A program made the position numbers and the translations under genes. Of a DNA stretch of 64,000 nucleotides, positions 967 through 62,038 are shown one piece after another. Source of the DNA: Dehalococcoidia bacterium (GTDB taxonomy: Bacteria; Chloroflexota; Dehalococcoidia; Lucifugimonadales; QGNO01); the NCBI GenBank assembly GCA_965261825.1, contig CBDHED010000003.1, positions 135,090 through 199,089 of the forward strand, written 5' to 3'. The number at the start of each line of letters is the position of its first letter. Position 1 is the stretch's first letter. The notes under the pieces are model-generated. The model saw only the letters and a list, made by a program, of their open reading frames with translations, was not told the origin of the DNA and searched no databases.

Positions 967-2295
967 ATGGAACTAGACGGGATGCTCACCGGGATACGTG
1001 TGCTCGACTCCACCACGGCAGTAGCAATGCCAACGGCGATGCACATCCTGGCCGATATGGGGGCCGAGGTGATAAAGGTTGAAGCCCCCGCCAGAGAGGA
1101 GTCCGCTGCCAGGGATGACGCGTTCCAGTACTTGCAACACGGCAAGCTGGGAGTGACGGTCAATATCAAGGCGGAGGGCGGCCTAGACCTTTACAAAGAC
1201 CTAGTGCGTGTCAGTGACGTCCTTGTAGAGAACAATAGGGCCGGTACCATCGCCCGTTTGGGACTGGGATATGATGAACTGCGTAAAGTAAACCCCACCA
1301 TTGTTATGCTCTCCAACACCGGCTTCGGCCAGACAGGCCCATGGAGGCGCTATACTGGGATCGGATCTTTCCTTGAACTAACCACAGGAGTCAGCCACTT
1401 CACCGGCTATTTGGATCAGGGCCCGCGGCAGGTTGGAGGGGCCTGGATCGATATTCACGCGGCGTGGATGACCGTCTTCTCCGTGCTTGCCGCGCTTTAC
1501 CATCGTGCCCAAACGGGAGTTGGGCAGCATGTCGACTTCGCCATGTACCAGGTCGGTGTGACCACGATGGGTGTTGATCTTCTCGATTACTTCTCCAACG
1601 GTAGGATTGGAAAGCAGATGGCGAATCGTCATCCATACTACGCACCACACGGCCTGTACCCCTGTAAGGGCGAAGACAGATGGATCGCCATCGCCGTAGA
1701 GTCCGATGTCCAGTGGCGGGCACTTTGTATATTGATGGACAAGCCTGAGTTGGCGAATGACCCGCGATACGCAGACAGCCTGAGCCGCTGGCATCATCAA
1801 GACGACCTTGAACCCGTCATCGCGGCCTGGAGCAAGGAATACGATTACAGAGAGTTGATGAAGCTAACCCAAGACAAAGGCATAGTAGCCTCCATAGTAC
1901 CTGATGCCGCAGAACTAATGACGGACCCGCATATGGTGGCCCGGGGCTTCTACGAAAAAATGACCCACTCCCCGGAATCGGGATACGGTACCAGGCTATT
2001 CATCGGACGTCCTTGGAAAGCGTCCCATACCCCATCTCATTTCCGTAGACCCGCTCCCTACCTCGGTGAGCACAACGAATATGTCTTCGGAGAGCTCCTC
2101 GGTTTGTACCACAAAGACCTGGAGCGGCTCTACCAGAACGGGGTTGCCGCCAAGATTCCTCCCAAGCCACAACAAGAGAGTGCAGGTCGACCCGTAGGGC
2201 GTAGAGGCCATATCGGCTACGCGGCGCCGTCGGTGGAGAACGGTACCTTGGCCTACGTTGACTCTGACTATAAAAAGAAACTCGGCATCGAATGA
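967..2295 (+). CDS. family-III (CaiB/BaiF-type) CoA-transferase, alpha-type subunit, copy 1
   Basis: Motifs: GIRVLDSTTAVAMPTAMHILADMGAEVIKVE, NNRAGT..LGLGY, GFGQTGPW, AWIDIH...LAALYHR..GVGQHVDFAMYQ. ATG 967 is preferred over TTG 964 by comparison with the paralogs at 41861 and 59469. Confidence 0.85.
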   Translation: MELDGMLTGIRVLDSTTAVAMPTAMHILADMGAEVIKVEAPAREESAARDDAFQYLQHGKLGVTVNIKAEGGLDLYKDLVRVSDVLVENNRAGTIARLGLGYDELRKVNPTIVMLSNTGFGQTGPWRRYTGIGSFLELTTGVSHFTGYLDQGPRQVGGAWIDIHAAWMTVFSVLAALYHRAQTGVGQHVDFAMYQVGVTTMGVDLLDYFSNGRIGKQMANRHPYYAPHGLYPCKGEDRWIAIAVESDVQWRALCILMDKPELANDPRYADSLSRWHHQDDLEPVIAAWSKEYDYRELMKLTQDKGIVASIVPDAAELMTDPHMVARGFYEKMTHSPESGYGTRLFIGRPWKASHTPSHFRRPAPYLGEHNEYVFGELLGLYHKDLERLYQNGVAAKIPPKPQQESAGRPVGRRGHIGYAAPSVENGTLAYVDSDYKKKLGIE

Positions 2296-3518
2296 CGCAA
2301 GCAGGGCCATTTAATAAGCTGCGTGTTATAGACCTAGCAACCGAGGTCGCCGGCCCCTTTGCCACAAAACTCTTCGCCGACTACGGCGCCGATGTGATCA
2401 AAGTGGAACCGGTTGGTGGTGAGCCGTCAAGGCGCATGGGGCCCTTTCACGAGGACGACCCTCATCCTGAAAAGAGCTTGACCTTCCTTTTCCTGAACTG
2501 TAACAAGCGCGGGGTCACACTGAATCTGGAGACAGAGGCCGGTAGGAAGATATTTCGCGAGTTGGTCAGGGGCGCCGACCTACTCGTGGAGAGCAACCCG
2601 CCCCGCTATCTCGAAGGGTTAGGTATAGGCTATCGCGAACTGGAGAACCTCAATCCCCAGCTCGTGATGACGTCCATTACACCTTTCGGTCGGACCGGGC
2701 CCTATCGGGATTTCAAAGGCAACGACTTGGTGTACTACGCATTCGGTGGGCAGATGTACGTCAGTGGCGCCTATGACCGAGAGCCGTTGAAGCACGGACA
2801 CCCTCAGAGCCTCTTCTTGGGTGGCATGGTTGCAGCACACGCCACCACTGCAGCTCTGTTTGCCAGAACTATGCTTGGCCGAGGCCAGCATATAGACCTA
2901 TCCTTGGCAGAGGTTATGGCGGCCGATCAATACCAGTCCGCCGTGCGCTACGCCTTCTCCGGTCAAGTGACCCGCCGAGCGCCCAAGAGCGACACCGGTG
3001 ACCCCAAGGGCACTGGATTCAACGGCATGGTCCGGGCCAAGGACGGCTATGTGCGTCTGTCGGTCAGCCCCCCGAATCGCCTCTACCCCAGGTCAGGGGA
3101 GACGCCGTGGAAAGATTACGCGGCCCTACTTGGCCATCCCGAGTTGGGACAGCCACTACAAGACGCCGAGAGCATCCAGGATATAGACTCACTCCTCTTG
3201 CCCGTCATCCGGGAGATGCCCAAGTTCGAGTATTTTCATAACCTGATGACCCAGGAGTGGGACGCAGCAGTGGCGCAGACCCCGGAAGATTTGGCCGGCA
3301 GCCCTCAGTTGGAAGACCGTGGCTTCTTCACCCAAGTAGAGCATCCTGTTGTAGGAAAGATAAGATTTCCCGGTGAGATTGTGAGGTTCTCCAAATCGCC
3401 ATGGAGCCTTCGTTTTCCCGCTCCGTTGTTGGGGCAGCACAATAGAGCGGTGTACTGCGGAGAGCTCGGTTACACAGATGAGGATGTCGTGAACCTTAGG
3501 CAGCTAGGCGTCATTTAG
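2292..3518 (+). CDS. family-III CoA-transferase-like, beta-type subunit, copy 1
   Basis: Motifs: LRVIDLATEVAGPFATKLFADYGADVIKVEP, ITPFGRTGPY, GRGQHIDLSLAEV. The start ATG overlaps the upstream stop (ATGA), which indicates translational coupling. Confidence 0.85.
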   Translation: MTQAGPFNKLRVIDLATEVAGPFATKLFADYGADVIKVEPVGGEPSRRMGPFHEDDPHPEKSLTFLFLNCNKRGVTLNLETEAGRKIFRELVRGADLLVESNPPRYLEGLGIGYRELENLNPQLVMTSITPFGRTGPYRDFKGNDLVYYAFGGQMYVSGAYDREPLKHGHPQSLFLGGMVAAHATTAALFARTMLGRGQHIDLSLAEVMAADQYQSAVRYAFSGQVTRRAPKSDTGDPKGTGFNGMVRAKDGYVRLSVSPPNRLYPRSGETPWKDYAALLGHPELGQPLQDAESIQDIDSLLLPVIREMPKFEYFHNLMTQEWDAAVAQTPEDLAGSPQLEDRGFFTQVEHPVVGKIRFPGEIVRFSKSPWSLRFPAPLLGQHNRAVYCGELGYTDEDVVNLRQLGVI

Positions 3519-4162: not shown

Positions 4163-5524
4163 ATGTTGACCCAGACTTTCGAAGAGGCAATTACCGAGTA
4201 CATCGAACGGTGCAAGGAGGCAATTGGAAAAGAGAGAGACGAATATAGGCCCCCCGGCCCGGGGACTCCGTTTCCTTGGTCCTCGCCATATGAAGCGGCA
4301 TTAAGATTCGATTCCCGGACAATCCGCAACTACACCTTGGCTCACGGTGATGACAACCCCCTATTCATCGACCCAGAGTATGGCAAGAGGACGCGCTACG
4401 GCTCCCAACTAGTCCCTAACCCGGCCCTCATTTTGGTAAGAGGCGCCGGCGGCCAAGGACCAAACAGACCCCAGGGATACCCGGTAGGCGATTTCTTTTC
4501 CGGAGTCGCCTGGGACTACTACGATGTTGTCAGGCTTGGTGCCGCTCGTGTTAAGAACACCAAAACCACCACGGAGTTCTTTGAAAAGCAAGGCTCAAGA
4601 GGACGCTTGCTCTTCCTCATCGCGGAGAACCGGTATTGGGATGCCCACGCCGATTTGATAGCCATGTGCTACGGGACGCTTATTCTGGTCCCAATTGAAG
4701 CTATGGGCGGCGGTCGTGCCATGCCCGTGGAGCGCTTAGGCGAACAGCTAATGTACGAACGTAAGGCATCCCAGTACAATCGTGAGCAAGTAGACGAATG
4801 TCTTGCGACGATGAACCAGTCTTACCGACGTGGTGCGAATACACTCTACTGGGAAGACGTTCAGGTAGGAGACAAACTGGGGCCTCTAGTCCATCCACCA
4901 TTCACTCTCCTAGACCAGATATCAGGTGGCGTGGTCTCTGGCGCCACGCAAGGCCCCAGGCAGTATGAGGAGGGTGAGGATCTGACTCATGAGGGCCTTC
5001 AATTTGAGGGCGTGTTCCATCGGAATCGGAAGAGACCTGGAGGTGCGGGCACGCACCCCATTACTCGTTGGCCTTGGGGTCCCCGTGATGAGCACCCCGA
5101 TGCCGTAACCGCCCCGTTCCGCGGACAGCCGTTACCCTTTGACGGGGGGGTCAGGCGCACGCAAGCAGCCAACAGAATGCTGACAGACTGGATGGGTGAC
5201 GATGGGTTCATTCGGCGCTACCAGACCGCCCTACGCAAACCGCTGTATTACGGAGACACCACCATATATACGGGTGAGGTAGTAAGAAAGTTCAAAGAAG
5301 TGCAAGAGGGCAACGCCGAGCCTGGGGGCCAGCCCGGTAAGGCTGAGTACAACGTTGTAGGGATCAAACTGCAAGGGTCCAATCAACTGGAAGAGATCCA
5401 GATGCAGGGCACCGCAGCCATATATCTGCCCTCGCGAGAAACCGGGCCAGTTAAGTTACCCGTGCCCCACCCTGGGAATCCCCCGTACGTACCTTATGAA
5501 ACCTTCTATCGTGACTGGTATTGA
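4163..5524 (+). CDS. double hot-dog fold (MaoC/FAS1-dehydratase-like) protein, paralog B
   Basis: GGAGGA Shine-Dalgarno 4 nt upstream of the ATG. IRNYTLAHGDDNPLFIDPEYG resembles the MaoC_dehydrat_N / hydratase-2 segment. LYWEDVQVGDKLGP is a typical MaoC hot-dog entry. C-terminus VPYETFYRDWY. Confidence 0.85.
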   Translation: MLTQTFEEAITEYIERCKEAIGKERDEYRPPGPGTPFPWSSPYEAALRFDSRTIRNYTLAHGDDNPLFIDPEYGKRTRYGSQLVPNPALILVRGAGGQGPNRPQGYPVGDFFSGVAWDYYDVVRLGAARVKNTKTTTEFFEKQGSRGRLLFLIAENRYWDAHADLIAMCYGTLILVPIEAMGGGRAMPVERLGEQLMYERKASQYNREQVDECLATMNQSYRRGANTLYWEDVQVGDKLGPLVHPPFTLLDQISGGVVSGATQGPRQYEEGEDLTHEGLQFEGVFHRNRKRPGGAGTHPITRWPWGPRDEHPDAVTAPFRGQPLPFDGGVRRTQAANRMLTDWMGDDGFIRRYQTALRKPLYYGDTTIYTGEVVRKFKEVQEGNAEPGGQPGKAEYNVVGIKLQGSNQLEEIQMQGTAAIYLPSRETGPVKLPVPHPGNPPYVPYETFYRDWY

Positions 5525-7994: not shown

Positions 7995-8399
7995 ATGCCG
8001 ATACCATTAGAGGTTGTTATAGAGCGCACTCCGCTATCCCAGCAGGCTGACCGCCGCCGCTTGAGAGCTTGGAAGCGGGTGGTGCGGAATGCTGTGGGAG
8101 AAGAGTGGGACGCTGAACCGCCCTTCGCCGGAGAAGTCATGGTGGGCATCACCTACTACTTCAAAGGAGAGTCTCTGGATGTCGACAATATGCCGAAGCC
8201 AATCCTGGACGCACTGAAGGGGCTGGTCTATGCCGACGACGACCAAATAACCGACCTCGTCTGCCGCAAGAGAACCCGGGATAGAGACCTGCAATTTGAG
8301 AACCCGTCACCCGTTCTGCTGGAAACGCTCGGACGATCCGAGCAGTTTCTCCACATCACCGTGAACGAAGCACTGAGCCTGGAGGTGCCATCTTGGTGA
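7995..8399 (+). CDS. RusA-family Holliday-junction resolvase-like endonuclease
   Basis: 134 aa. LDVDNMPKPILDALKGLVYADDDQI matches the RusA acidic/Lys core (D-x-D-N-x2-K-x3-D-A-L...D-D-x-Q). Confidence 0.7.
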   Translation: MPIPLEVVIERTPLSQQADRRRLRAWKRVVRNAVGEEWDAEPPFAGEVMVGITYYFKGESLDVDNMPKPILDALKGLVYADDDQITDLVCRKRTRDRDLQFENPSPVLLETLGRSEQFLHITVNEALSLEVPSW

Positions 8400-9049
8400 G
8401 AGACGCAACCGACTCCGAATACCTACTCACGCACAAGACCGCAGAAGAGTACCGAAGCAAGGGCTACCAGGTCCTGTTGGAAGCGCCGCTGGACTTCATG
8501 CCGGGATTCAGAGCCGATCTGCTTGTTCGGAAGGGCGATGAGGCGAGGGTCATAGAAGTGAAGTCCAGAGCGTCACTGGCCGCCGACCCCAAGATAAGCG
8601 AGCTGGCGCGACTCATCGAGTCGATGCCAGGGTGGACTTTTGAGCTGGTTCTGGTGGGTGAACCGGAAAAGGTGGACTCGCCCGAAGGCGCACGTTCGTT
8701 TGAGAGCGATGGGATTCTGCAAAGGCTCGAAGAAGCCGAGAGATCTCTCCAAGCGGAATTACCGGAGGGGGCCTTCCTGCTCGCATGGTCGGCTTCTGAA
8801 GCCGTCATCAGAGAACTGCTTACAGCGCAGGGGGTATCCAGCAGGAGCATCACCTCGCCCGGTTATGTTCTCGACCAGGGGATATACCGTGGGGTCATCT
8901 CTAGGAACGACTACGACGCTCTGACCCGTATGCGAAAGTACAGAAACGCTATCGTCCATGGTTTCGGCACATACGACTTCAACGGTGAACTGGTAACGGA
9001 GCTCATTGCCACCATAAGACGCATCATGGCGAGGCGTTTTAGGGATTAG
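8393..9049 (+). CDS. PD-(D/E)xK nuclease-like N-domain fused to a C-terminal HEPN domain
   Basis: RADLLVRKGDEARVIEVKS gives D42...E55-x-K57, a restriction-endonuclease-like triad. YRNAIVHGF at nt 8942-8959 is a canonical HEPN R-N-x3-H motif. The start (TTG 8393 or GTG 8396) overlaps the RusA-like stop. Confidence 0.65.
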   Translation: MVRDATDSEYLLTHKTAEEYRSKGYQVLLEAPLDFMPGFRADLLVRKGDEARVIEVKSRASLAADPKISELARLIESMPGWTFELVLVGEPEKVDSPEGARSFESDGILQRLEEAERSLQAELPEGAFLLAWSASEAVIRELLTAQGVSSRSITSPGYVLDQGIYRGVISRNDYDALTRMRKYRNAIVHGFGTYDFNGELVTELIATIRRIMARRFRD

Positions 9050-18266: not shown

Positions 18267-19709
18267 ATGGACAAGCCGCGCTTGGTGAAACAACTCGAAC
18301 ACATTGTGGGCAAGCGGTCGGTGATTCACCACCCCGACGACCTGCTGGTCTACGAGTACGACGGTTCCGTGGATAGGGGATTACCCGCGGCCGTGGTGTT
18401 TCCTGCTTCTACGGAGCAGGTGTCACGGATTGTGGACCTGGCGGGTAGAGAAGGCCTGCCGGTTATACCAAGAGGCGCTGGGACTGGGCTTTCCGGCGGC
18501 GCCATTGCCTGCCAAGGCGGGATAGAGTTGGCGCTGACCAGGATGCGTTCTATTCTGGAGATAGACCCCCAGAATAGAATAGCCGTAGTTGAGCCCGGCG
18601 TTGTGAATCTTGATCTGTCCGTCGCTGCTTCCATGTACGGTCTCTATTTCGCCCCGGACCCTTCCAGCCAGCGCGCTTGCACCATAGGCGGAAACGTAGC
18701 CGAGAACTCCGGAGGACCTCACTGCCTGCGCTACGGGGTGACGACAAACCACGTGCTGTCCTTGCAGGTGGTGTTGGAGGACGCGTCTGTGGTGTGGCTG
18801 GGCGACCCCTACCGGTACCGGCCCGGGTACGATTTAGTAGGAGCGTTCGTTGGATCAGAGGGGATGATGGGGGTGGTTACAAAGGCGGTGGTGGGTTTGC
18901 TGCCCGCTCCGCAGTCGGTGAAGACAATGCTTGCCGTGTTCAGCGAAATCGAACAGGCCAGCATGGCTGTATCCGCGGTGATCGGCGGAGGACTGATACC
19001 TACTGCAATGGAGATGATGGATAGCCTGGCCATAAAGGCGGTGGAAACTGCAATCAACTTTGGATACCCCAAGGACGCTGGGGCGGTATTGCTCATAGAG
19101 GTGGATGGCCTGGAGGTGGAGGTGAATGAATCAGCCGGCGTGGTGCGAGAGATTTGCATTGATGCGGGGGCCACCGACGTCAAGGAAGCAAGCGAGGCTT
19201 CGGAAAGGGAACGGCTCTGGGCGGGAAGGAAGGGCGCTCTGGGCGCGCTGGGTACCCTGGCCCCGAACTATTACCTGGTAGACGGCGTGGTGCCAAGATC
19301 AAAGCTTCCGGATGTGTTGCGTAAGGTAGGGGAGATCAGTGAGGAGTACGGTTTAGCCGTTGCCAATGTCTTCCACGCCGGAGACGGCAACCTGCACCCC
19401 TGCATTGTTTTCGACGAAAGGCAGCCCGGCCAAACCGAACGAGTCATAGAGGCCGGCGGCAAAATACTGGAAGTGTGCGTGGACGCCGGTGGAGTCCTTA
19501 CTGGCGAGCACGGTGTAGGACTGGAGAAGAAGGCGTACATGCCGCTGATGTTCAGCGACGCCGATATGGATGCAATGCTTCAGCTAAAAGAGACCTTTGC
19601 CCCCAGGGGTCTGTTCAATCCCGGCAAGGTGTTCCCTGACGGCGTGTCCTGTCTGGATGCCGGGCAGCAAGCGGCGGTGGGCAGAGTTGGCGCCGGAGCC
19701 TGGACGTAA
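18267..19709 (+). CDS. glcD: glycolate oxidase subunit GlcD (FAD-linked oxidase)
   Basis: FAD_binding_4 motif PRGAGTGLSGGA. 480 aa. First gene of a D-E-F arrangement. Confidence 0.85.
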   Translation: MDKPRLVKQLEHIVGKRSVIHHPDDLLVYEYDGSVDRGLPAAVVFPASTEQVSRIVDLAGREGLPVIPRGAGTGLSGGAIACQGGIELALTRMRSILEIDPQNRIAVVEPGVVNLDLSVAASMYGLYFAPDPSSQRACTIGGNVAENSGGPHCLRYGVTTNHVLSLQVVLEDASVVWLGDPYRYRPGYDLVGAFVGSEGMMGVVTKAVVGLLPAPQSVKTMLAVFSEIEQASMAVSAVIGGGLIPTAMEMMDSLAIKAVETAINFGYPKDAGAVLLIEVDGLEVEVNESAGVVREICIDAGATDVKEASEASERERLWAGRKGALGALGTLAPNYYLVDGVVPRSKLPDVLRKVGEISEEYGLAVANVFHAGDGNLHPCIVFDERQPGQTERVIEAGGKILEVCVDAGGVLTGEHGVGLEKKAYMPLMFSDADMDAMLQLKETFAPRGLFNPGKVFPDGVSCLDAGQQAAVGRVGAGAWT

Positions 19710-21007
19710 TGACGTCTCCTGCCCAAATGCGGGGAATGCTCGTCCATGTCATGGATGGGACTTCCTTTGTTCCTGACTCCGATCTGTCCCGTCACGCGGT
19801 GGAAGGCCTCACTCCCAAAGCGGCCGTTTTCCCCACTTCTGAAGAAGAGCTATCGGCCTTGCTCAAAGAGGCAAATGAAAAATGTTGGGCTGTAGCGCCC
19901 AAAGGGTCGGGAAACGCCGATCGATTGGGGAACTTGCCGGAAAGATTGGATGTTGTGGTTGGCGCCGAAATGCTGCCAAACCCTATCGACCATAATCCCG
20001 GTGATTTGACGATAAGCGTTGGCGCGGGGACTACGTTCGGACTGTTGCAGGAGCGGCTCGCCGAAGAGGGCCAGTGGCTGCCGCTGGATCCGCCGCTGGC
20101 CGGTAGGAGGACAGTGGGCGGCATACTTGCCGCAAACCTGGCCGGGCCGCTCAGCCTTTCCTACGGCGGTGCCCGTGATTTTGTACTGGGAGTGAGGGTT
20201 GCAAGCGCCGCTGGAACTGTTACCAAGAGCGGGGGGAACGTAGTCAAGAACGTTACCGGGTTCGATTTACCCAAACTGCACATAGGTGCGTTGGGGACGC
20301 TGGGCATAATCTTGCAGGCCACTTTCAAAGTGATTCCATTGCCCAAAGAGGACAGGACCCTGGCCGCTGAGTTCAACGATTTGGGCAAGGCGGTAGATGT
20401 CTGCCAGGAGATCGCTCGTTCTCCATACACCGGTCAGGCGATAGAGCTCATCAGGGGAAGCGACGGACGGAACCGGGTCTACGCCCGTTTCTTGGGCTCA
20501 GTCCCCTCTGTAGAAGTTCGACTGGAGAAGGGAAAGTCCTTGCTGGAGCAGGCTGGCGCTAAGAACGTCAACACCCTTGCCCAAGATCAAGCAAGAGCAC
20601 TCTGGGACGCCGTTACGGATTTTGGATGGAACGGCAGTGCGGAAGAAGAGATGCTGCTCAGCTTGGGGCACCTTCCATCTAAGACCAAGCCCGTGATCGG
20701 CGCAATATCCGAATATTGCATGCAAAACGGCTACAGTTTGGAAATGGCCGTCGGGCCGGCGCGGGGCGTTGTGAAGTGCAAGATTGTGGCTCCTTGCAAT
20801 CAAATGAGAAACGTAGTATCCAGCCTTAGGAGTATAGCTGCATCCGCCGATGGCTATGCGTTGGTAGAGCAGGCGCCTCTGCAGGTAAAGGCTGAGTTGG
20901 ACGTGTGGGGTGACCCGGGCCCGGCCCTGCATCTGATGCGGCGATTGAAGAACAGAATGGATCCCAACCGTATTCTCAATCCCGGCAGATACGTGGGAGG
21001 TATCTGA
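19709..21007 (+). CDS. glcE: glycolate oxidase FAD-binding subunit GlcE
   Basis: FAD-binding PCMH-type domain (PKGSGN...). Its start overlaps the glcD stop by 1 nt. Confidence 0.75.
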   Translation: MTSPAQMRGMLVHVMDGTSFVPDSDLSRHAVEGLTPKAAVFPTSEEELSALLKEANEKCWAVAPKGSGNADRLGNLPERLDVVVGAEMLPNPIDHNPGDLTISVGAGTTFGLLQERLAEEGQWLPLDPPLAGRRTVGGILAANLAGPLSLSYGGARDFVLGVRVASAAGTVTKSGGNVVKNVTGFDLPKLHIGALGTLGIILQATFKVIPLPKEDRTLAAEFNDLGKAVDVCQEIARSPYTGQAIELIRGSDGRNRVYARFLGSVPSVEVRLEKGKSLLEQAGAKNVNTLAQDQARALWDAVTDFGWNGSAEEEMLLSLGHLPSKTKPVIGAISEYCMQNGYSLEMAVGPARGVVKCKIVAPCNQMRNVVSSLRSIAASADGYALVEQAPLQVKAELDVWGDPGPALHLMRRLKNRMDPNRILNPGRYVGGI

Positions 21008-21008
21008 G

Positions 21009-22292
21009 GTGGTGCGGCAACAGGCCCCAGGCCATCCCGTCTTTGCCGGACCCCGTGACGAAGACCTGTACAAGTGCGTACATTGCGGTCTGTGCCTCAA
21101 TGCTTGCCCCACATATCTGGAGACCGGCCTTGAAACCGAATCACCGCGGGGACGTATTGCACTTATGAAGGCGGTGCGCGAAGACCGCGTCTCCTATACC
21201 AGGCAAGTAACGTCGCATATGGACTTGTGCTTGCAATGCCGTGCCTGCGAAGTGGTGTGCCCTTCCGGCGTCCCCTTCGGCAGACTAATGGAGGCAACGC
21301 GGGAAGAGATATCCAAGCAAAAGAGAGCGCCGCTATGGAAGAGATTCGCTTTGAATCTTGCCTTTCACCATCTCCTATCCTACCCCGGGCGCTTGTATAC
21401 TTTGGGCACGGCGCTGCGGCTATACCAGCGGACCGGCCTGCCCCGGCTGCTCTGCCGGGTCCCTGGAATGGCCGACAGGTTCCACAGGCAACTGCCAAAG
21501 ATCCCTGGCAAGTTTTTCAAACCGCCGGGAGATGTTGCTGCCCTCCGCATCAAAGCCAGAGCCAAGGTCTTCCTGCTCTCCGGTTGCGTTATGCCGTTGA
21601 CCCATGGCCCGACAATGGAAGCCGCTGTACGCGTGCTTACAAGGAACGGTTGCCAGGTGGCAGTGCCCCAAGACCAGGTTTGCTGCGGCGCTTTGAATCT
21701 GCACGGTGGAGACAGGCGGCAGGCACAGAGCATGGCACGGCGTAATATCGATGTTTTCTTGGGTGAAGACGTGGACGCCGTGGTGGTGGCATCGGCGGGG
21801 TGTGGCTCCACAATGAAGGAATACGACGACCTTTTGCACGACGACCCTGAATATGCGGAGAAAGCGCAAGTCCTCAGCGCCAAAGTTAAGGACATCTCTG
21901 AGTTCTTGGTCGGCTTGCCCTGGGAGCCCCCCAAGGGAAAGATGCCCATTCGGGTAACGTACCAGGATGCGTGCCATCTGGCCCACGCTCAGCGGATAAT
22001 GGAGGCGCCTCGCCGCCTGCTTCAGTCGATACCCGAGCTGCAACTGGTGGAGATGGAAGATTCCAGCCGCTGTTGTGGAGCCGCCGGTTTGTACAGCACG
22101 TTGCAGCCGGAGATGTCGCGCCGGCTTCAGAGGAACAAGGTGTTGTCTGTGCTGGCCACGGGTTCGGAAGTGATGGCCACGGCCAACCCCGGTTGCGCAA
22201 TTCAAATGGAGACGGGACTTAGGGAAGCAGCCAGCCCGGTTAGGGTGAGTCACGTAATAGACCTCTTGGATCAGGCTTACGCCTTGGAGTAG
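21009..22292 (+). CDS. glcF: glycolate oxidase iron-sulfur subunit GlcF
   Basis: Two ferredoxin-type clusters (CVHCGLCLNACPTY and CLQCRACEVVCPSGV) plus two CCG domains. Confidence 0.85.
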   Translation: MVRQQAPGHPVFAGPRDEDLYKCVHCGLCLNACPTYLETGLETESPRGRIALMKAVREDRVSYTRQVTSHMDLCLQCRACEVVCPSGVPFGRLMEATREEISKQKRAPLWKRFALNLAFHHLLSYPGRLYTLGTALRLYQRTGLPRLLCRVPGMADRFHRQLPKIPGKFFKPPGDVAALRIKARAKVFLLSGCVMPLTHGPTMEAAVRVLTRNGCQVAVPQDQVCCGALNLHGGDRRQAQSMARRNIDVFLGEDVDAVVVASAGCGSTMKEYDDLLHDDPEYAEKAQVLSAKVKDISEFLVGLPWEPPKGKMPIRVTYQDACHLAHAQRIMEAPRRLLQSIPELQLVEMEDSSRCCGAAGLYSTLQPEMSRRLQRNKVLSVLATGSEVMATANPGCAIQMETGLREAASPVRVSHVIDLLDQAYALE

Positions 22293-22294
22293 AC

Positions 22295-23407
22295 ATGGGT
22301 TGGTCCAGACATCATCCCATGGGCCTCATATTCTCTGCGCCGCAACTGTGCTATCCGGGGTATACCCTGTTTGCCAATGCTGGAGGCGGCGCTCAGCCTG
22401 GCGAGTCCGGTAAATACACCAACTTGATAGACCTGGAAGGACGCATATGCCATCGCTGGCGGCATGAGGAGGGTATCAGGTACGGACACCTGCTTCCCGG
22501 CGGGAACCTGCTCTTCCGCACTAGGCCGCCAGAAAGCGCCGACCTTCCCGGCCATGCCGGCGGCGCGGCGGCGGCGATAATCGAGATCGATTGGGATAGC
22601 AACGTGGTCTGGGAATACCGCGACCCCTACCTTCACCACGATTTCGTCAGACTGCCCAGTGGCAATACCTTGCTCCTTTTCTGGCAGCGCATGCCAGAGG
22701 AGTTGACCTCCCGTATACAGGGCGGATACAAGACGGACGACGACCCGGCGGCTATGTTTGGCGACGTGATACGGGAGGTTACACCTGGGGGAGACGTGGT
22801 CTTCGAGTGGCGTTCCTGGGAATGCCTGGATCCTTTGGAGAATATCATCTGCCCGCTGGAGAACCGCGAGGAGTGGACTCATGGAAACTCGCTGGCGGTC
22901 ATGCCAAACGGCGATATCCTGGTCAGCTTCAGAAAAACCAGCGCCATCGTCATAGTGTCCAGAGAAAGCGGGGAGATCAAATGGAAATGGGGCCCAGGCG
23001 AGGTATCGCATCAGCACCATGCATCGCCACTGGACAACGGGCGGTTGCTGCTGTTCGATAACGGGTCGCACCGCCGGGGCATGGACTATTCCAGGGTGAT
23101 AGAGGTTGACCTGTCCACGGGCCAAATCGGCTGGGAGTACCAGGGCGACCCACCCGTTTCTTTCTACAGCTATCACATCAGTGGAGCGGAGCGGCTGCCC
23201 AACGGCAACACGCTCATTTGCGAAGGCGCACACGGGCGGTTATTTGAAGTTAGTCCGGATAAGGATATAGTCTGGGAGTACGTAAATCCGTTCTTCTCTT
23301 CTGGTCCTGGCGTGGAACGCGCCAACTGGGTGTTCCGGGCGCACAGGTACGGCCCGGATCATCCTGCCCTTAGAGGAAGAGACCTGCGGCCCAAGCTGCT
23401 ACAGTGA
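22295..23407 (+). CDS. arylsulfotransferase (ASST/Arylsulfotran_2)-like beta-propeller protein
   Basis: Repeated blades: HHDFVRLPSGNTLLLF, THGNSLAVMPNGDILVSF, HQHHASPLDNGRLLLFDNG, PNGNTLICEG. Confidence 0.55.
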   Translation: MGWSRHHPMGLIFSAPQLCYPGYTLFANAGGGAQPGESGKYTNLIDLEGRICHRWRHEEGIRYGHLLPGGNLLFRTRPPESADLPGHAGGAAAAIIEIDWDSNVVWEYRDPYLHHDFVRLPSGNTLLLFWQRMPEELTSRIQGGYKTDDDPAAMFGDVIREVTPGGDVVFEWRSWECLDPLENIICPLENREEWTHGNSLAVMPNGDILVSFRKTSAIVIVSRESGEIKWKWGPGEVSHQHHASPLDNGRLLLFDNGSHRRGMDYSRVIEVDLSTGQIGWEYQGDPPVSFYSYHISGAERLPNGNTLICEGAHGRLFEVSPDKDIVWEYVNPFFSSGPGVERANWVFRAHRYGPDHPALRGRDLRPKLLQ

Positions 23408-23431
23408 ACCGCGTTATTGCAAGGAGATTGT

Positions 23432-24466: not shown

Positions 24467-24517
24467 GTTGAAACCACAACTACGGCGTGAGTCTGCTTGA
24501 TATATAAGGAGGAGTAC

Positions 24518-25300
24518 ATGGCAGAGCTTTCAATGTTTGATCTGACGGATAGAGTGGCTATAGTGACCGGAGGCGGTCACGGAATCTCCAAAGCAGTCGC
24601 TTTGGGCTTCGCTCAAGCCGGAGCTCACGTGGCTATAGTGGACAAGGTTCCGGAGAGGGCGGAAGCCACCAGCGCCGCTATTGAAGACCTTGGCCGTGAA
24701 TCGCTGTTCGACACGGCTCACATAGGCTATGAAGACAAGGCCAGCGGGTTTGTAGGCAGAGTGCTGGATAAGTTTGGCCGCGTAGACATTCTGTTCAACG
24801 GAGCAGGCGGGATGCGTACTGCGGATGGGCTCTACTACGAAAAGCCGGTGGAGGAGTTGACCGAGGACGTACTGGATGAGGTCATTAGAAACAACGTGAA
24901 GTCGTGCTTCTTCATGTGCAAGGCTGTGGGGCCTACCATGCTAAACCAGGGCAAAGGCAGCATTATCAACGTGAGCTCGGTGAGCGGATACGAGCCTTCA
25001 CCCCGGCGCACGCCGTACGGTATCAGCAAGGCGGGCATCACCAACTTCACCAAGAGTCTTTCCGCGGAGTGGGGGCCAAAAGGCGTCCGCGTCAACGAAA
25101 TATGGCCGCTGGCGGTGACACGGCCCCAAGAAGAAAGATACCAGGACCAGGAGAACGTCAAGCGCCTTACCGACCGCATCGCAATCGGACGTCTCGGTGT
25201 GCCGGAGGACCACGTTGGCGCAGCCATATTCCTCGCTTCCGACGCCAGTGAGTGGGTCTGCGGAGCCACCTTCAGGGTAGACGGAGGCCGCACCGGCTAG
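24518..25300 (+). CDS. SDR-family oxidoreductase
   Basis: VAIVTGGGHGISKA (TGxxxGIG-like), NGAG, and S...YxxxK (YGISKAG). AAGGAGG Shine-Dalgarno before ATG 24518. Confidence 0.85.
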   Translation: MAELSMFDLTDRVAIVTGGGHGISKAVALGFAQAGAHVAIVDKVPERAEATSAAIEDLGRESLFDTAHIGYEDKASGFVGRVLDKFGRVDILFNGAGGMRTADGLYYEKPVEELTEDVLDEVIRNNVKSCFFMCKAVGPTMLNQGKGSIINVSSVSGYEPSPRRTPYGISKAGITNFTKSLSAEWGPKGVRVNEIWPLAVTRPQEERYQDQENVKRLTDRIAIGRLGVPEDHVGAAIFLASDASEWVCGATFRVDGGRTG

Positions 25301-36923: not shown

Positions 36924-36932
36924 ACTGGAGAC

Positions 36933-41860: not shown

Positions 41861-43198
41861 ATGAAGATGGACGGGATGCTCAGCGGAATACGCGTTCTGG
41901 ACTCCACGACGGCCGTGGCGATGCCTACGGCCATGCACATCCTGGCCGACATGGGGGCCGAGGTGATCAAGATAGAGACCCCTACCAGGGAGGAGTCCGG
42001 CCGGCGTGATGAGAGCTTTCAATACCTTCACCACAGTAAGAAAAGCATGACCATCAACCTGAAAGCCCCCGGCGGAGTCCAGCTTTACAAAGACCTGGTC
42101 GGCAATAGCGACGTGCTGGTAGAGAACAACCGCGCCGGAACCCTGGACCGCCTGGGCGTGGGCTACAGTGAGCTGATCAAGGTGAAGCCGGGCATCATCC
42201 TCCTTTCCAACACCGGATTTGGGCAGACCGGCCCGTGGAAGCGCTATGCCGGCATAGGAACGTTTCTGGAGCTGATTGCCGGAGTTAGCCACTTCACTGG
42301 CTATCCTGACCAGGGGCCCAGGCAGGTTGGCAACGCCTGGATAGACATACATGTAGCCTGGATGGCGGTCTTCTCCATACTGGCGGCGCTCCACTGGCGT
42401 GAGGAGAGCGGGGAAGGGCAGCACATAGACTTTTCCATGTACCAGGTTGGCGTTTCAACCCTGGGAGCGGAGGTACTTGATTTCATTGTAAACGGCAATA
42501 TAGGGGAGCAGATGGGGAACCGTCATCCGGTGCATGCCCCGCACGGTGTCTACCCCTGCCGCGGCGACGACAAGTGGATAGCCATAGCCGTAGAGAACGA
42601 TGAGGAGTGGCGCGCCCTGCTCAAGACTATGGGCCGCCCGGAATGGGCGGACAACCCCAAGTTTGAAGATGCTCTATCGCGCCATCACAACCAGGATGAA
42701 ATAGATGGCCATATCGCTGAGTGGACAAAGGGCTGGGACTTTTATGAGCTTATGCATCTGCTCCAAGGCAACGGCGTAACAGCCTCGGTAGTCCCCAACA
42801 CGGCTGAACTCATGACCGATCCCCACATGAAGGCCAGGGGCTTCTATGAAAAGTTGACCCACTCGCCGGAATCCGGGCTTGGCTCCCGGGTTTTAATCGG
42901 CAGGCCCTGGAAGGTCTCCAAGACACCGTCTAGGTTCCGCGACCCGGCCCCCACGCTGGGACAGGACAACGAGTACGTCATGAAAGAGGTCCTGAAGCGC
43001 ACGCAGGAAGAGATGGACCGGCTGTATGAAGCCGGAGTACTGGCCAGGCAAACCCATCAGGAGACGCCTCCATCGCCGCGAACGCCAGCGGCCCCTGCTC
43101 GACCCAGGCCTGGCGCTGCTAACCCTGCTCCCAGCTTGGAAGAGGGCACCCTTGCCTATACAGACACCGACTACCAGAAGCGCTTGGGGGTGGAGTGA
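41861..43198 (+). CDS. family-III CoA-transferase, alpha-type subunit, copy 2
   Basis: Close paralog of 967-2295 (GIRVLDSTTAVAMPTAMHILADMGAEVIKIE; AWIDIH). Same C-terminal GTLAYTDTDYQKRLGVE tail. Confidence 0.85.
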   Translation: MKMDGMLSGIRVLDSTTAVAMPTAMHILADMGAEVIKIETPTREESGRRDESFQYLHHSKKSMTINLKAPGGVQLYKDLVGNSDVLVENNRAGTLDRLGVGYSELIKVKPGIILLSNTGFGQTGPWKRYAGIGTFLELIAGVSHFTGYPDQGPRQVGNAWIDIHVAWMAVFSILAALHWREESGEGQHIDFSMYQVGVSTLGAEVLDFIVNGNIGEQMGNRHPVHAPHGVYPCRGDDKWIAIAVENDEEWRALLKTMGRPEWADNPKFEDALSRHHNQDEIDGHIAEWTKGWDFYELMHLLQGNGVTASVVPNTAELMTDPHMKARGFYEKLTHSPESGLGSRVLIGRPWKVSKTPSRFRDPAPTLGQDNEYVMKEVLKRTQEEMDRLYEAGVLARQTHQETPPSPRTPAAPARPRPGAANPAPSLEEGTLAYTDTDYQKRLGVE

Positions 43199-44421
43199 TG
43201 GGCGGTAGCGTGTTCGGGAAGTTCCGCGTCGTGGACATGACTAGGGGCATAGCGGGACCCTTTGCCAGCAAGCTCCTGGCGGACTATGGAGCAGACGTGA
43301 TCAAGGTCGAACCACCTCAGGGCGACCCTTCAAGGCAGATGGGCCCCTTCGCCGGAGGCGACCCTCACCCTGAAAAGAGCCTGCTCTTTCTCTATCTCAA
43401 TTGCAATAAACGGGGAGTAACCCTGGACGTTGAAACCGGCGCCGGTAGAAAGCTCTTCCTTGACCTAGTGAAGACGGCGGATGTCCTGATGGAGGACTAC
43501 ACCCCGGGATTTCTGGATAGCTTGCAGTTGGGCTACCCGCACCTGGAAGAGATCAACCCAAAGCTGGTGATGACCTCTATTACACCGTTTGGCCAAACGG
43601 GGCCGTACAAGAGCTACAAGGGTAATGACCTTGTCCACTATGCCATGGGCGGCATGATGTACACCAGCGGTGCATACCACAGGGAACCACTTAAGCATGG
43701 CCACCCGCAAAGCCTCTATCTAGGAGGCATAGTAACCGCTTACGTCACCTCGGCCGCGCTCTTTGCCAGGAGGACACTGGGCCAAGGACAGCACGTTGAT
43801 CTGTCTCTATCGGAGGTCATGGCCGCCGACCATTACCAACCTGTGGCCAGGTATGCCTTTTCAGGGGGAGTAACGCGGCGCGCCCCCAAGAGCGATACCG
43901 GCCAGGAGAAGGGCACCGGCTTCCTGGGCATTGTCCCGGCAAAGGACGGGTACGTTAGGGCCTCCATCAGCCCTCCACAAAGGCTCTATTCTCGCTCCGG
44001 GCCTCAACCCTGGCCTGAGTATGCCGGCTTGCTGGGGCATCCGGAAATTGGTGATGCCCTGGCCGAAGCAACCAGTACACAGGAGATCGATGAGATACTA
44101 CTGCCTGTGATAAGAGAAATGCCCAAGATGGAGTACTACCACAGGTTGATGACAAACGAATGGCTGGCGGCGGCGGCACAGACTCCGCAGGACTTGGCCA
44201 ATTGCCCGCAGCTTGAGGAACGGCAGTACTTCACGGAGGTGGAGCACCCCGTTATTGGCCGTGTAAAATTCCCTGGAGAAGTGGTGAGATTGCCCAGCTC
44301 TCCCTGGAGCCTTCGATTTCCCGCCCCTCTCCTTGGCCAGCATAACAGGGCCGTCTTCTGCGGAGAGCTGGGCCGCAGCAAGGACGATCTTGTTGGGCTT
44401 AGACAGGTGGGAGCAATCTGA
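43198..44421 (+). CDS. family-III CoA-transferase-like, beta-type subunit, copy 2
   Basis: Paralog of 2292-3518. ATG 43198 overlaps the alpha stop (TGATG). GTG 43195 is an alternative start. Confidence 0.85.
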   Translation: MGGSVFGKFRVVDMTRGIAGPFASKLLADYGADVIKVEPPQGDPSRQMGPFAGGDPHPEKSLLFLYLNCNKRGVTLDVETGAGRKLFLDLVKTADVLMEDYTPGFLDSLQLGYPHLEEINPKLVMTSITPFGQTGPYKSYKGNDLVHYAMGGMMYTSGAYHREPLKHGHPQSLYLGGIVTAYVTSAALFARRTLGQGQHVDLSLSEVMAADHYQPVARYAFSGGVTRRAPKSDTGQEKGTGFLGIVPAKDGYVRASISPPQRLYSRSGPQPWPEYAGLLGHPEIGDALAEATSTQEIDEILLPVIREMPKMEYYHRLMTNEWLAAAAQTPQDLANCPQLEERQYFTEVEHPVIGRVKFPGEVVRLPSSPWSLRFPAPLLGQHNRAVFCGELGRSKDDLVGLRQVGAI

Positions 44422-48289: not shown

Positions 48290-48306
48290 GCCTAATGGGC
48301 TAGAGT

Positions 48307-58532: not shown

Positions 58533-59444
58533 GTGGTCAAGAAGACCATTTATGAAAAGAAAGACGGCATTGCCTATCTCACCATCAACAACCCGGAGAA
58601 AGCCAATGTAATGGATGACGTCGTCATCGGGGAGATGGGAGAGGAGTACAGGGACTTCTGGGAAGACCGCGATATGCGGGTCATGATTATCACCGGCATT
58701 GGCGACCGCCACTTTTCCGCCGGGCACAACATACAGCCTCCTCCGACTGGCATGACCCATGACGACGTACGGCAAGACAGGGTTGACCAGTTCATCTGGC
58801 CTCCGTCTGCTTCAATAAACGGCAGATTGCCGTCGGTGGACGTACGCAGCGGGCACGATTTTCCGCAGATATGGAAACCCGTCATTGCCGCGGTCAACGG
58901 TTGGGCTGCAGGCGCAGGCCTCTACACCCTTCTCACCACTACGGATATACGCATCGGCTGCCGGGAGCATGCCCGCTTCTATTTCGCTCTTCTATCCAAT
59001 AGAGGCGGCATCGGCAGCGGGCCGACCGCGGCTCGGCTCATAAAGCAAGTCCCTCACGTTCACGCCATGAAGATGCTCCTTACGGATGAGCCGGTCAACG
59101 CAGACGAAGCGGTACGCATGGACCTGATCAACGAAGCCGTGCCCCATGATCAGTTGATGTCTCGCTGTGAAGAGCTTGCCCGCCGCATCTGTGAGATGCC
59201 CCCAATAGCGGTTCGTTTCCTCAAGGAATTCCTCATCAGGGGCGCTGACATGACTACCGACCAGGCCTGGCACCTGCAATGGGTGTTCAACCACCTGGTG
59301 AGCCAGCACTCCAGCGACAGCGATGATGCAACGGAAGCGTTCTTGGAAAAGCGCCAACGCACGGTGACCGGCGAGGTGCGTGGCAGCACAACGGGCCGCA
59401 ACCGTGACGAGCGAGGATACCTTACGTACGATAGATTTGGCTGA
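58533..59444 (+). CDS. enoyl-CoA hydratase/isomerase (crotonase) family protein, copy 2
   Basis: Close paralog of 44490-45341: IAYLTINNPEKANVMD, ITGIGDRHFSAGH, AAVNGWAAGAGLYTLL. GTG start with a GGAGG upstream. Confidence 0.85.
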   Translation: MVKKTIYEKKDGIAYLTINNPEKANVMDDVVIGEMGEEYRDFWEDRDMRVMIITGIGDRHFSAGHNIQPPPTGMTHDDVRQDRVDQFIWPPSASINGRLPSVDVRSGHDFPQIWKPVIAAVNGWAAGAGLYTLLTTTDIRIGCREHARFYFALLSNRGGIGSGPTAARLIKQVPHVHAMKMLLTDEPVNADEAVRMDLINEAVPHDQLMSRCEELARRICEMPPIAVRFLKEFLIRGADMTTDQAWHLQWVFNHLVSQHSSDSDDATEAFLEKRQRTVTGEVRGSTTGRNRDERGYLTYDRFG

Positions 59445-59468: not shown

Positions 59469-60815
59469 ATGGACGGTCCGCTCTCCGGCCTACGCGTCAT
59501 AGACTCCACAACGGTCTTGGCCATGCCTACAGCCATGTACATCATGGGCGACATGGGCGCAGAGGTAATCAAGGTTGAAACCCATACCAGGGGGCGAGGC
59601 GGCGGCGGCCAGGTCAACTACGCCGACAACGTTGTTCCCCAAGAGCAGCACTGGAACCGGGATGGCAGCTTCCACGCTCTGCACAGAAGCAAGCGCGGAA
59701 TTACATTGAACTACAAAGTTCCGGAGGCGGTGGAAGCCTTCAAAGACCTGGTCAGAGTCAGTGACGTCTTGGCCGAGAACAACCGCCCGAGTACCATGGA
59801 GCGCCTGGGCCTGGGATATGAAGAACTGCGAAAGATCAAGCCGGACATCATCTACTTCTCTTTTAGCGGCTTTGGCTACACTGGCCCCTGGCGAAACTAC
59901 CAGGGCATTGGCAGAATGTTCGAATTGACCAGCGGGGTGAGCCAGTTTACCGGCTACCCGGATGAAGGCCCCCGGCGTGTCGGCTCGGCATGGTTCGACC
60001 CGCCCAACGGATGGATGGCCGTATTCTCCATCCTTGCCGCCATTCACCACAGAAACAGCACAGGCAAAGGCCAGTGGATAGACCACTCCATGTACCAGAT
60101 GGGCGTGTCCACTATTGGCGATGCTCTCCTGGACTATATCGCCAACGGCCGCAACGGCCACCTCATGGGCAATCGCCATACGTCCAAAGCGCCTCATGGA
60201 GCGTACCGCTGCAAAGGCGATGACAACTGGATAGCTATCTCCGCAGAGACGGATGCCCACTGGGACGCCCTCAAGGAAGTGATGGGCACCCCCTCTTGGG
60301 CGGAGTCTGATGATTTTTCGGATGTCCTATCCCGCTGGCATAACCAGGATGAACTGGACAACCATCTCAATGAGTGGACCAAAGATCACGAGCACATAGA
60401 GCTGATGGACGCATTGGTAAGAGCCGGAGTGCCGGCGGGAGCCGTGCTCAATCCCAAAGAAGTAATGACCGACCCCGCCATGAAGGAAAGCGATATTTTC
60501 GAAAAGGTGGAGTTCCCTTCCCAGACCGGTATGGGGACTCGCATGCTCCTGGGGCGTCCCTGGCGCATGTCGGACACAACCAGCTATATACGCCGCCCGG
60601 GTCCAGAACTTGGCGGAGACAACGAATACGTCCTGGGTGACCTCCTGGGTCGCGACGAACCTGAGATCGCACGGTTCTACGAGCTCGGCGCTCTGGGCAA
60701 GGAGCCGGAGCCTATGGGCAGACCCGGTACGCCCCAAGACTTGGACAAAGAGGTGGAGGACGGTACTCTGCGAGGATACGACACCGACTACAAACACATT
60801 CTGGGAATAGCTTGA
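59469..60815 (+). CDS. family-III CoA-transferase, alpha-type subunit, copy 3
   Basis: Motifs: GLRVIDSTTVLAMPTAMYIMGDMGAEVIKVE, AWFDPP...LAAIHHR. C-terminal tail GTLRGYDTDYKHILGIA. Confidence 0.85.
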   Translation: MDGPLSGLRVIDSTTVLAMPTAMYIMGDMGAEVIKVETHTRGRGGGGQVNYADNVVPQEQHWNRDGSFHALHRSKRGITLNYKVPEAVEAFKDLVRVSDVLAENNRPSTMERLGLGYEELRKIKPDIIYFSFSGFGYTGPWRNYQGIGRMFELTSGVSQFTGYPDEGPRRVGSAWFDPPNGWMAVFSILAAIHHRNSTGKGQWIDHSMYQMGVSTIGDALLDYIANGRNGHLMGNRHTSKAPHGAYRCKGDDNWIAISAETDAHWDALKEVMGTPSWAESDDFSDVLSRWHNQDELDNHLNEWTKDHEHIELMDALVRAGVPAGAVLNPKEVMTDPAMKESDIFEKVEFPSQTGMGTRMLLGRPWRMSDTTSYIRRPGPELGGDNEYVLGDLLGRDEPEIARFYELGALGKEPEPMGRPGTPQDLDKEVEDGTLRGYDTDYKHILGIA

Positions 60816-62038
60816 TGGACAGCACCGCTTTACAAGGGTTCCGTATCATAGAGTTGAGCGGCGGCATCGCCGGACCGTTTGCCACCAAGCTGTTCGCCGA
60901 CTACGGAGCCGACGTAATCAAGCTGGAGCCGTTGCAGGGAGACGAGGCGCGTAGTCTGCCCCCCTTTTTCCATGACGAGCCTCATCCGGAGAAGAGTCTT
61001 GCCTTCCTATACCTGAACACCAACAAACGGAGTGTTACCCTCAACATTGGAACAGCACACGGAAGACGGATCTTCAGAGACCTGGTTGCAAGCGCCGACG
61101 CACTCATAGAGAGCCATCCCCCGGGTTACCTGAACAGCCTTGGACTAGGCTACGACGAGCTTTCACGGTGCAATCCCAACCTAGTGCTCACTTCCCTTAC
61201 ACCGTACGGGCAAAACGGTCCCTACAGTGACTATCCGGGCAATGACCTCATCTACGAGGCTATGGGCGGCATTATGTACACCAGCGGCGCCTACGCCAGG
61301 GAACCGTTGAAGCATGGGCACCCCCAGAGCCTCTACATAGGAGGCATCACCGCCGCCTACGCCACCTCTGCGGCGCTGTTCGCTAGGGCATGGCTGGGCA
61401 AAGGGCAGCACGTTGACCTGTCCCTGCGAGAGGTGGTAGCGGCCCATCACCACAGCACGCCTACCCGCTACAGCTTTGGCGGCTCCATAGAGCGGCGCGC
61501 TCCCAAGGTGGATGCCGGTTCACCCAAGGGCGGCGCTCATTTCGAAGGGATAGTGCCGGTGAAGGACGGCTACGTTGGCGCCACCTTCCAACGCGGCGTC
61601 CAGCGCGGTACATATTCAGACTACGTCAAGATGCTTGGCCGTCCCGATGTGGACGACCCGGATTTCCCACCCATCATGTTCCCCGCTCGCATACCTGAGG
61701 ACAAGGACAGGATACTTCTTTCCATCCTCAACGACTGGGGCAAGTTTGAATATTTCAACAAGGCTGCCTCCGAGAGTTGGGTAGCCGCCGTTGTGCAGAC
61801 CTCTCAGGACTTGGTGGAAGGGGAGCACCTCAATGCACGCGGGTTCTTCACAGATATGGAGCACCCCGTAATTGGCAAGATCAAGATGCCCGGGGAGATC
61901 TCCCGTCTCACTGGAAGCCCTTGGAGCCTGCGTCGTCATACGCCTCTCTTGGGGCAACACAACAAGGAGATCTATTGCGGTGAGCTTGGATTCAGTGAAG
62001 AAGAGCTCATCCAGCTAAAGCGCCAAAGCGTGATCTAA
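60815..62038 (+). CDS. family-III CoA-transferase-like, beta-type subunit, copy 3
   Basis: FRIIELSGGIAGPFATKLFADYGADVIKLEP. ATG 60815 overlaps the alpha stop (TGATG). Confidence 0.85.
   Translation: MDSTALQGFRIIELSGGIAGPFATKLFADYGADVIKLEPLQGDEARSLPPFFHDEPHPEKSLAFLYLNTNKRSVTLNIGTAHGRRIFRDLVASADALIESHPPGYLNSLGLGYDELSRCNPNLVLTSLTPYGQNGPYSDYPGNDLIYEAMGGIMYTSGAYAREPLKHGHPQSLYIGGITAAYATSAALFARAWLGKGQHVDLSLREVVAAHHHSTPTRYSFGGSIERRAPKVDAGSPKGGAHFEGIVPVKDGYVGATFQRGVQRGTYSDYVKMLGRPDVDDPDFPPIMFPARIPEDKDRILLSILNDWGKFEYFNKAASESWVAAVVQTSQDLVEGEHLNARGFFTDMEHPVIGKIKMPGEISRLTGSPWSLRRHTPLLGQHNKEIYCGELGFSEEELIQLKRQSVI

Follow-up and report, generated by a model that had tools for sequence, protein, structure and literature searches.

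Three gene pairs in a 64,000-nucleotide stretch of a Dehalococcoidia bacterium genome (assembly GCA_965261825.1, contig CBDHED010000003.1, positions 135,090 to 199,089 of the forward strand; this whole stretch is called the window below) very probably encode three heteromeric family III coenzyme A (CoA)-transferases of the BbsEF type, each pair giving one enzyme made of two paralogous subunits that we call alpha and beta. Sequence comparisons suggest that alpha and beta most likely form an obligate heteromer, each dimer having a single catalytic site.

Three alpha/beta gene pairs in the window

The window contains exactly six open reading frames (ORFs) of the CoA_transf_3 family (PF02515), arranged as three co-oriented alpha/beta pairs on the plus strand, and no further PF02515-like ORF was found in its 64 kb. 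All six proteins match the family over their full length, with E values of about 1e-83 to 1e-103 and scores of 280 to 346 bits against a cut-off of 23.3. In pair 1, alpha1 (967..2295; 442 aa from the ATG at 967, in an ORF that opens with a TTG at 964; E = 7e-101) is followed by beta1, a BbsE-like subunit lacking the nucleophile (2292..3518; 408 aa; E = 3e-83). Pair 2 consists of alpha2 (41861..43198; 445 aa) and beta2 (43198..44421; 407 aa from the ATG at 43198, with a GTG at 43195), and pair 3 of alpha3 (59469..60815; 448 aa) and beta3 (60815..62038; 407 aa from the ATG at 60815, with a TTG at 60812). The alphas share 51 to 65% identity (65% between alpha2 and alpha1) and the betas 55 to 69% (69% between beta2 and beta1); alpha and beta of the same pair are 24 to 30% identical.

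An initial annotation of this DNA had reported that stop and start codons overlap within the pairs, as ATGA once and TGATG twice, and we read these junctions at 2292 (gaATGAcg, where the start ATG of beta1 overlaps the stop of alpha1), 43196 (gTGATGg), and 60813 (tTGATGg). The overlaps are 1 or 4 nucleotides long, and the alpha and beta ORFs are separate and lie in different frames. Alpha3 has a Gly-rich insertion of about 20 residues relative to alpha1 and alpha2 (residues 44 to 65, approximately), which starts with RGGGGQ and sits in the loop that follows the first strand-helix unit of the Rossmann domain.

Leucine at the nucleophile position of beta

In family III enzymes the catalytic Asp stands at the start of the central helix, as with Asp169 of Frc and CaiB. 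To locate this column in the window proteins, we used HMMER single-sequence and profile alignments to solved PDB chains. The catalytic Asp of SUGCT (Asp212), 4ED9, 10UH, and 9FN0 chain B was aligned with the Asp of alpha (AWI-D-IH) and with the Leu of beta (HPQS-L-F/Y). The column thus holds D162 (codon GAT at 1450..1452), D162 (42344-42346), and D177 (59997-59999) in alpha1 to alpha3, each a predicted nucleophile, and L174 (codon CTC at 2811..2813), L173 (43714-43716), and L173 (61331-61333) in beta1 to beta3. The best PDB sequence matches of alpha1 included 10uh_A (E = 8e-52) and 9fn0_B (E = 5e-47), both Asp on Asp. Among these references, 10UH is an Frc-like enzyme of Brucella and SUGCT is the human enzyme, whose Asp212Ala variant is inactive and whose pocket is built by both chains (PMC10871334).

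These alignments bear out what the initial annotation had claimed about this segment. Its rule that the Asp lies about 13 residues before an AAL motif holds in the alignments to solved structures, the six peptide strings that it quoted were each found in the translations, and the Asp that it assigned to all three alphas aligns with the known catalytic one. The same is true of its statement that the betas lack Asp and Glu here, since the three 23-residue beta segments contain no acidic residue; the nearest one is the family-wide Glu of REP, 10 residues upstream. It had also allowed that a proper alignment might place a conserved acid of beta in the active site, and the solved-structure alignments put Leu at the nucleophile position. 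Because Leu occupies this column in all three betas, beta appears to be a structural member of family III and not one that is catalytic on its own.

More than 5,900 homologs of beta1 were found at E ≤ 1e-20, and those with names carried generic ones, their organisms being Chloroflexota, Dehalococcoidia, or SAR202 metagenome-assembled genomes (MAGs). In 118 beta1 homologs the column held Q, L, Y, F, or N and, in one case, E, but never D. An alignment of 120 beta homologs had a mean column identity of 60%, with 24 invariant positions.

The BbsEF structures as a precedent

That BbsEF, the benzylsuccinate CoA-transferase, consists of two subunits has been known since 2001; structures of the enzyme (9FN0 and 9FOL) were released in December 2025. 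The best PDB sequence match of beta1 was 9fn0_A, with an E value of 2e-59 when the sequence was searched by itself and 5e-82 when a profile of 120 sequences was used. The initial annotation had suggested a structural comparison with Frc, CaiB, and BbsEF among others, and an AlphaFold2 model of beta1 (predicted local distance difference test score, 88.6) was found to fit the family fold, with BbsEF chain A as the best match: 9fn0_A and 9fol_A were the top fold matches (Foldseek E = 1.5e-33; template modeling [TM] score, 0.76), and the TM scores against 9FN0, SUGCT, Frc, and CaiB ranged from 0.65 to 0.77. Alpha was placed in the fold by sequence alone.

At the nucleophile column, 9FN0 chain A has Tyr171, and chain B aligns Asp to Asp with alpha. 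The title of the 9FOL entry mentions a "D178-CoA adduct". The BbsEF entries name no other adduct, and D178 was assigned to chain B by residue count. Therefore, a two-subunit, one-nucleophile family III transferase is already documented structurally, and the design described here is not new in kind. In the literature available to our search, no earlier statement was found that BbsE lacks the Asp.

As in BbsEF, neighboring genes encode two paralogous family III subunits in each window pair, with the nucleophile on one chain and a non-acidic residue on the other. The window pairs also differ from BbsEF in several respects. Beta is only about 32% identical to chain A and carries clade-specific KHG and DDPHPEKS motifs, the alphas carry a C-terminal extension of about 50 aa that chain B does not have, and alpha precedes beta in the window, while in more distant relatives beta comes first, the order of bbsE and bbsF. 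There is also no bss/bbs context, so the substrate certainly differs from that of BbsEF. Neither the level of identity to chain A nor the operon context is that of a benzylsuccinate-specific BbsEF ortholog, and the annotated window neighbors included neither a thiolase nor a glycyl-radical enzyme.

Pairing and co-evolution of alpha and beta in related genomes

A scan of species-representative genomes confirmed at least 595 related stretches, and the locus analyses below use the best 80 of these (L001 to L080), whose ORFs were aligned with MAFFT. Most of the 80 loci are from Dehalococcoidia, with a few from Proteobacteria, Myxococcota, Desulfobacterales, Binatia, and Bacillota. An Asp-bearing alpha-like ORF directly adjoins a beta-like ORF in about 76 of them. 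Among 168 related sequences, the column holds Asp in 83 of 83 alpha-likes versus 3 of 85 beta-likes (Fisher P = 4.5e-45), with a column entropy of 0 versus 2.9 bits; the beta-like residues were mainly Leu (27 sequences) and Gln (24), followed by Glu (7), His (6), Phe (4), Gly, Asp, and Met (3 each), and others. Chance was rejected as a cause of this split, which is family-wide.

In a neighbor-joining tree of 174 sequences, the 85 beta-likes and 9fn0_A were separated from the alpha-likes, 9fn0_B, SUGCT, 4ED9, and 10UH with a bootstrap value of 93/100. 9fn0_B was nested inside the alpha-likes and 9fn0_A stood among the beta-likes, while the homodimeric enzymes formed a third small group. Together with the co-evolution and the fusions described below, these groupings indicate that the window pairs belong to an old BbsEF-type lineage and are not a local oddity. 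Independent convergent loss of the Asp was rejected as the main story, as the beta-likes and 9FN0 chain A share one clade. On the other hand, the variety of replacements and the presence of a subclade retaining Asp or Glu suggest that the nucleophile may have been lost more than once within the beta-like clade. The beta-likes that keep Asp (L033, L051, and L069) or Glu (L066, L068, L074, L076, L078, and the L062 fusion described below) are still paired with an Asp-bearing alpha-like and fall mostly in one subclade; they may represent heteromers in which both sites are active or stages on the way to nucleophile loss.

The two subunits also appear to have evolved together. A mirror-tree comparison of the pairwise distances of the alphas with those of their partner betas gave r = 0.90 for 75 pairs, against a maximum of 0.12 in 500 permutations, and r was 0.89 without the clade of the window. 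Three Dehalococcoidia MAGs encode beta-linker-alpha fusions as single ORFs of 825 to 856 aa (L062, 3998-6475; L071, 3854-6394; L077, 3974-6544). Their alpha halves have Asp, their beta halves have E, F, or Q at the column, and the linker is rich in Pro, Ser, and Gly and poorly conserved. The fusions occupy at least two separate branches of the tree, and their domain order is the beta-then-alpha gene order of most loci. A 968-aa ORF in L068 was rejected as a fusion, being merely a long stop-free stretch upstream of an alpha domain. The alpha-then-beta order was found only in the clade of the window (L001 to L006, with beta-likes at least 52% identical to beta1), and all of the more distant paired loci (L007 to L080) have beta then alpha. 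Since the order differs only in this clade and pairing is retained, it was inverted once.

We also observed a C-terminal extension of about 45 to 60 aa on the window alphas (2140-2292, 43040-43195, and 60670-60812), which recurs in the alpha-likes of L001 to L017, L027, L039, and L063. It consists of a Pro-rich spacer and a conserved end motif, roughly G.LA.YDPDY...LG(I/L/V), and is not present in 9FN0 chain B or the homodimeric enzymes. Possible roles are docking on beta and capping of a pocket.

The subunits differ at further motifs as well. Positions were called alpha specific when conserved in at least 85% of the alpha-likes and not in the beta-likes or chain A. The alpha-likes, and usually the homodimers too, conserve the nucleophile Asp, the Asn of VEN, GN.HP, APHG.Y together with Trp positions, and GVPAG. 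Instead of EN, beta and chain A carry ES (ED in beta2), and both GN.HP and GVPAG are absent from them. Conserved only in the beta-likes is a GPF..D.PHPEKS loop with D55 (89%) and E60 (93%), and the betas of the window's clade have PLKHG.PQS.Y.GG immediately before the column.

Proposed architecture and alternative explanations

The adjacency of the genes, their co-evolution, the fusions, and the clade shared with BbsEF are strong indirect evidence that alpha and beta would act as one physical unit. The initial annotation had proposed an obligate heteromer with one catalytic subunit, and this proposal gains support from the BbsEF precedent, the pairing in about 76 of the 80 loci, the mirror-tree correlation, and the fused forms. 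In the architecture that we propose, the overlapping stop and start codons would couple translation so that both chains are made together, and the two chains would interlock as two rings in the dimer that characterizes the family; such alpha-beta dimers may pair further into an alpha2beta2 tetramer. Alpha alone would supply the nucleophilic Asp, which, following the mechanism known for the family (PMC9813914), would form an acyl-aspartyl anhydride and then a beta-aspartyl-CoA thioester. The sole catalytic site would be the large domain of alpha closed by the small domain of beta, and beta would be indispensable for the folding of the interlocked dimer and probably shape the specificity for the acid substrate. 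The second pocket, made of the large domain of beta and the small domain of alpha, has Leu for Asp and has lost canonical motifs, and it is predicted to be non-catalytic.

Several observations weigh against this architecture. About 12% of the beta-like relatives keep D or E at the column while paired; therefore, the beta-like clade as a whole is not defined by nucleophile loss. Beta keeps most of the Rossmann-domain motifs (ADYGADVIKVE, NxNKR, and TSIT) that house CoA-contacting residues in solved relatives, and the surroundings of its pocket, namely PLKHG.PQS.Y.GG and the GPF..D.PHPEKS loop with D55 and E60, are more conserved than a dead site requires. The GN.HP and GVPAG motifs conserved in alpha sit in the linker/small-domain region and are expected to act at the partner's pocket. 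In addition, we take 9FN0 chain A to be BbsE and chain B to be BbsF from chain lengths only.

There is a small chance that the Asp-less pocket of beta has been repurposed rather than being dead. Beta appears to have gained K167, H168, Q172, and Y175 at the pocket and D55 and E60 in an adjacent loop. With these clade-specific residues gained and the Rossmann-domain motifs kept, the pocket might accommodate a second CoA thioester or acid. Such a pocket could permit substrate hand-over, regulation, or a second, Asp-free reaction, and if so, many SAR202 pairs would be bifunctional machines and not half-inactive transferases. Quite unlikely, in our estimate, is the related explanation that both pockets are functional, with beta using a relocated acid such as E60 or D55, or else binding a CoA thioester or acid non-covalently for channeling, regulation, or a second lyase- or isomerase-type reaction as in DddD. 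D55 and E60 are conserved in the beta-likes only, their loop matches the pocket region around Trp91-Tyr102 of SUGCT and Arg47 of MCT and lies in cis with the nucleophile column, the Rossmann-domain motifs are retained, the KHG...Q..Y motif is conserved at the pocket entrance, and a 397-aa subfamily has a Glu two residues past the column, all of which would fit a working second site. However, the column is as variable in the beta-likes (2.9 bits) as would be seen under relaxed selection, EN, GN.HP, and GVPAG were lost along with the Asp, the E60 column is occupied by Gln in 9FN0 chain A, the sole named BbsEF adduct is on D178 of chain B, and the KHG motif is confined to the close clade and does not extend to all beta-likes.

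It is highly improbable that alpha and beta form separate, co-transcribed homodimers, with beta being a non-transferase such as a racemase or an isomerase acting on the product. Family III does include racemases (MCR) and intramolecular transferases, both proteins are full length and well conserved, and the beta-likes of L009 and L054 have no alpha-like neighbor within 4 kb. However, the known racemases and isomerases of the family also require the Asp (Asp165 in MCT and Asp156 in MCR), beta groups at 93% bootstrap with one chain of an enzyme proven to be heteromeric, and neither the mirror-tree correlation of 0.90 nor the occurrence of beta-alpha fusions in at least two branches fits separate enzymes; adjacency is also near-universal despite the inverted order in one clade. 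That beta is a decaying, functionless duplicate is scarcely credible. Beta has lost the nucleophile and three further canonical motifs, as would be expected of such a gene, but the three beta ORFs of the window are intact, the 120 aligned homologs retain their 60% mean column identity and 24 invariant positions, and thousands of homologs exist that co-evolve with alpha. The one-nucleophile heteromer remains the preferred explanation of the pairs.

Relation to other systems

The homodimeric family III enzymes (Frc/YfdW, CaiB, SUGCT, YfdE, 4ED9, and 10UH) resemble the window pairs in fold, in the interlocked dimer, and in the Asp-anhydride/beta-aspartyl-CoA mechanism, and alpha carries all of their canonical motifs. 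They have two identical sites per dimer, whereas one of the two pockets has no Asp here, and the tree places them apart from both the alpha-like and the beta-like clades. DddD and PtmU4 are two-domain (tandem) type III CoA-transferases (PMC6006322), in which two family III modules likewise make up one unit, as they do in the fused relatives L062, L071, and L077; this comparison is by architecture only. The window genes differ from them in being separate, with overlapping stop and start codons, so both modules are not found in a single polypeptide in the window pairs but only in distant relatives. The succinyl-CoA:o-phthalate CoA-transferase PhtSa/PhtSb is another two-subunit family III transferase, for which a BbsEF-like tetramer is expected (bioRxiv 10.1101/2022.07.29.502009), and it was compared by description only. 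According to a title cited in PMC10818641, BbsCD has an inactive paralog as an obligatory partner. The pseudoenzyme-partner concept is similar, although BbsCD has an unrelated fold, that of a short-chain dehydrogenase.

SAR202 and other Dehalococcoidia have a large expansion of CaiB/BaiF paralogs, which was earlier interpreted as a collection of separate enzymes acting on recalcitrant organic matter (PMC5395668). Given at least 595 related stretches, with about 76 of the best 80 loci paired, a large share of these genes are arranged as co-evolving BbsEF-type alpha/beta pairs, which are very common in SAR202/Dehalococcoidia and form a very large, unrecognized set. Counts of catalytic transferases in these genomes would then be overestimates, single-gene heterologous expression would be likely to fail, and substrate specificity should probably be sought in the pair. 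For annotation, the non-catalytic partner can be recognized by the lack of Asp at the column, ES in place of EN, and the lack of GN.HP and GVPAG. The value of this is practical, for annotating and expressing the CoA-transferases of SAR202/Dehalococcoidia, and not conceptual, as the current view of the enzyme family stands.

Genomic neighborhood

When the six proteins were compared with the NCBIfam equivalogs for succinate-glutarate, mesaconate, formyl-CoA, oxalate, and carnitine transferases, the best score was 216 bits against cut-offs of 413 to 750, so no substrate could be named. The neighboring genes point in a general direction. Downstream of pair 1 lies a gene for a double hot-dog (FAS1_DH/MaoC-like) protein of about 450 aa (4163..5524, plus strand; weak Pfam matches to PF13452 and PF01575), with paralogs just upstream of pair 2 (39084-40433 and 40469-41824) and on the minus strand (27949-29286). 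The four hot-dog paralogs are 56 to 69% identical, and the hot-dog gene is syntenic with the pair in L001 to L006. No PDB sequence relative and no NCBIfam relative or equivalog-level name was found for them. The protein probably serves as an acyl-CoA hydratase in the step after the transferase, and the adjacent hot-dog pair at 39084 and 40469 could itself be heteromeric. Directly upstream of alpha1 is an unannotated ORF of 285 aa (80-937) that had no Pfam, NCBIfam, or PDB relative and has homologs in L001 to L006 and three other loci; its WEDVNVGDKL stretch may resemble a hot-dog sequence.

Pair 2 is preceded by genes for an acyl-CoA dehydrogenase, an Opp-type binding protein with two permeases, and the two hot-dog paralogs, and is followed by a crotonase gene (44490-45341, minus strand) and a LuxR-type regulator gene. 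Pair 3 is flanked by genes for a crotonase-family enoyl-CoA hydratase directly upstream (58533..59444, plus strand; PF00378) and a second crotonase downstream (62059-62958), the latter followed by a putative AidB-like lactonase of the metallo-beta-lactamase fold (62989-63780), whose match is below the equivalog cut-off. The NCBIfam matches of the crotonases were likewise all under the equivalog cut-offs. The AidB-like lactonase fits a route from a lactone to a hydroxy-acid and on to a CoA ester. Taken together, the hydratases, the acyl-CoA dehydrogenase, the lactonase, and the Opp-type importers point to a possible ATP-free activation of imported or lactone-derived carboxylic acids, which would then pass to hydration and beta-oxidation-like breakdown. 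Such ATP-free activation has already been proposed as a role of the CaiB/BaiF expansion in SAR202, where heteromers were not mentioned (PMC5395668).

Other features of the window were also observed. Two Opp/Dpp-type importer sets (35058-38933 and 46409-50292) each encode one SBP_bac_5 protein and two permeases, and no ABC ATPase gene was found among the annotated ORFs adjoining them; the second set is followed by two tandem amidase genes (50347-53326). A gene for a RusA-like resolvase and one for an AHJR-like nuclease adjoin each other at 7995-9049, with a few bases of overlap. They are flanked by genes for a gamma-glutamyltranspeptidase and a KatG-type catalase-peroxidase and may have been left behind by a mobile element or prophage. 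A run of plus-strand genes at 18267-25300 encodes a GlcD/GlcE/GlcF-like FAD and Fe-S oxidase, an arylsulfotransferase-like protein, a luciferase-like monooxygenase, and a short-chain dehydrogenase, a combination typical of SAR202-like genomes.

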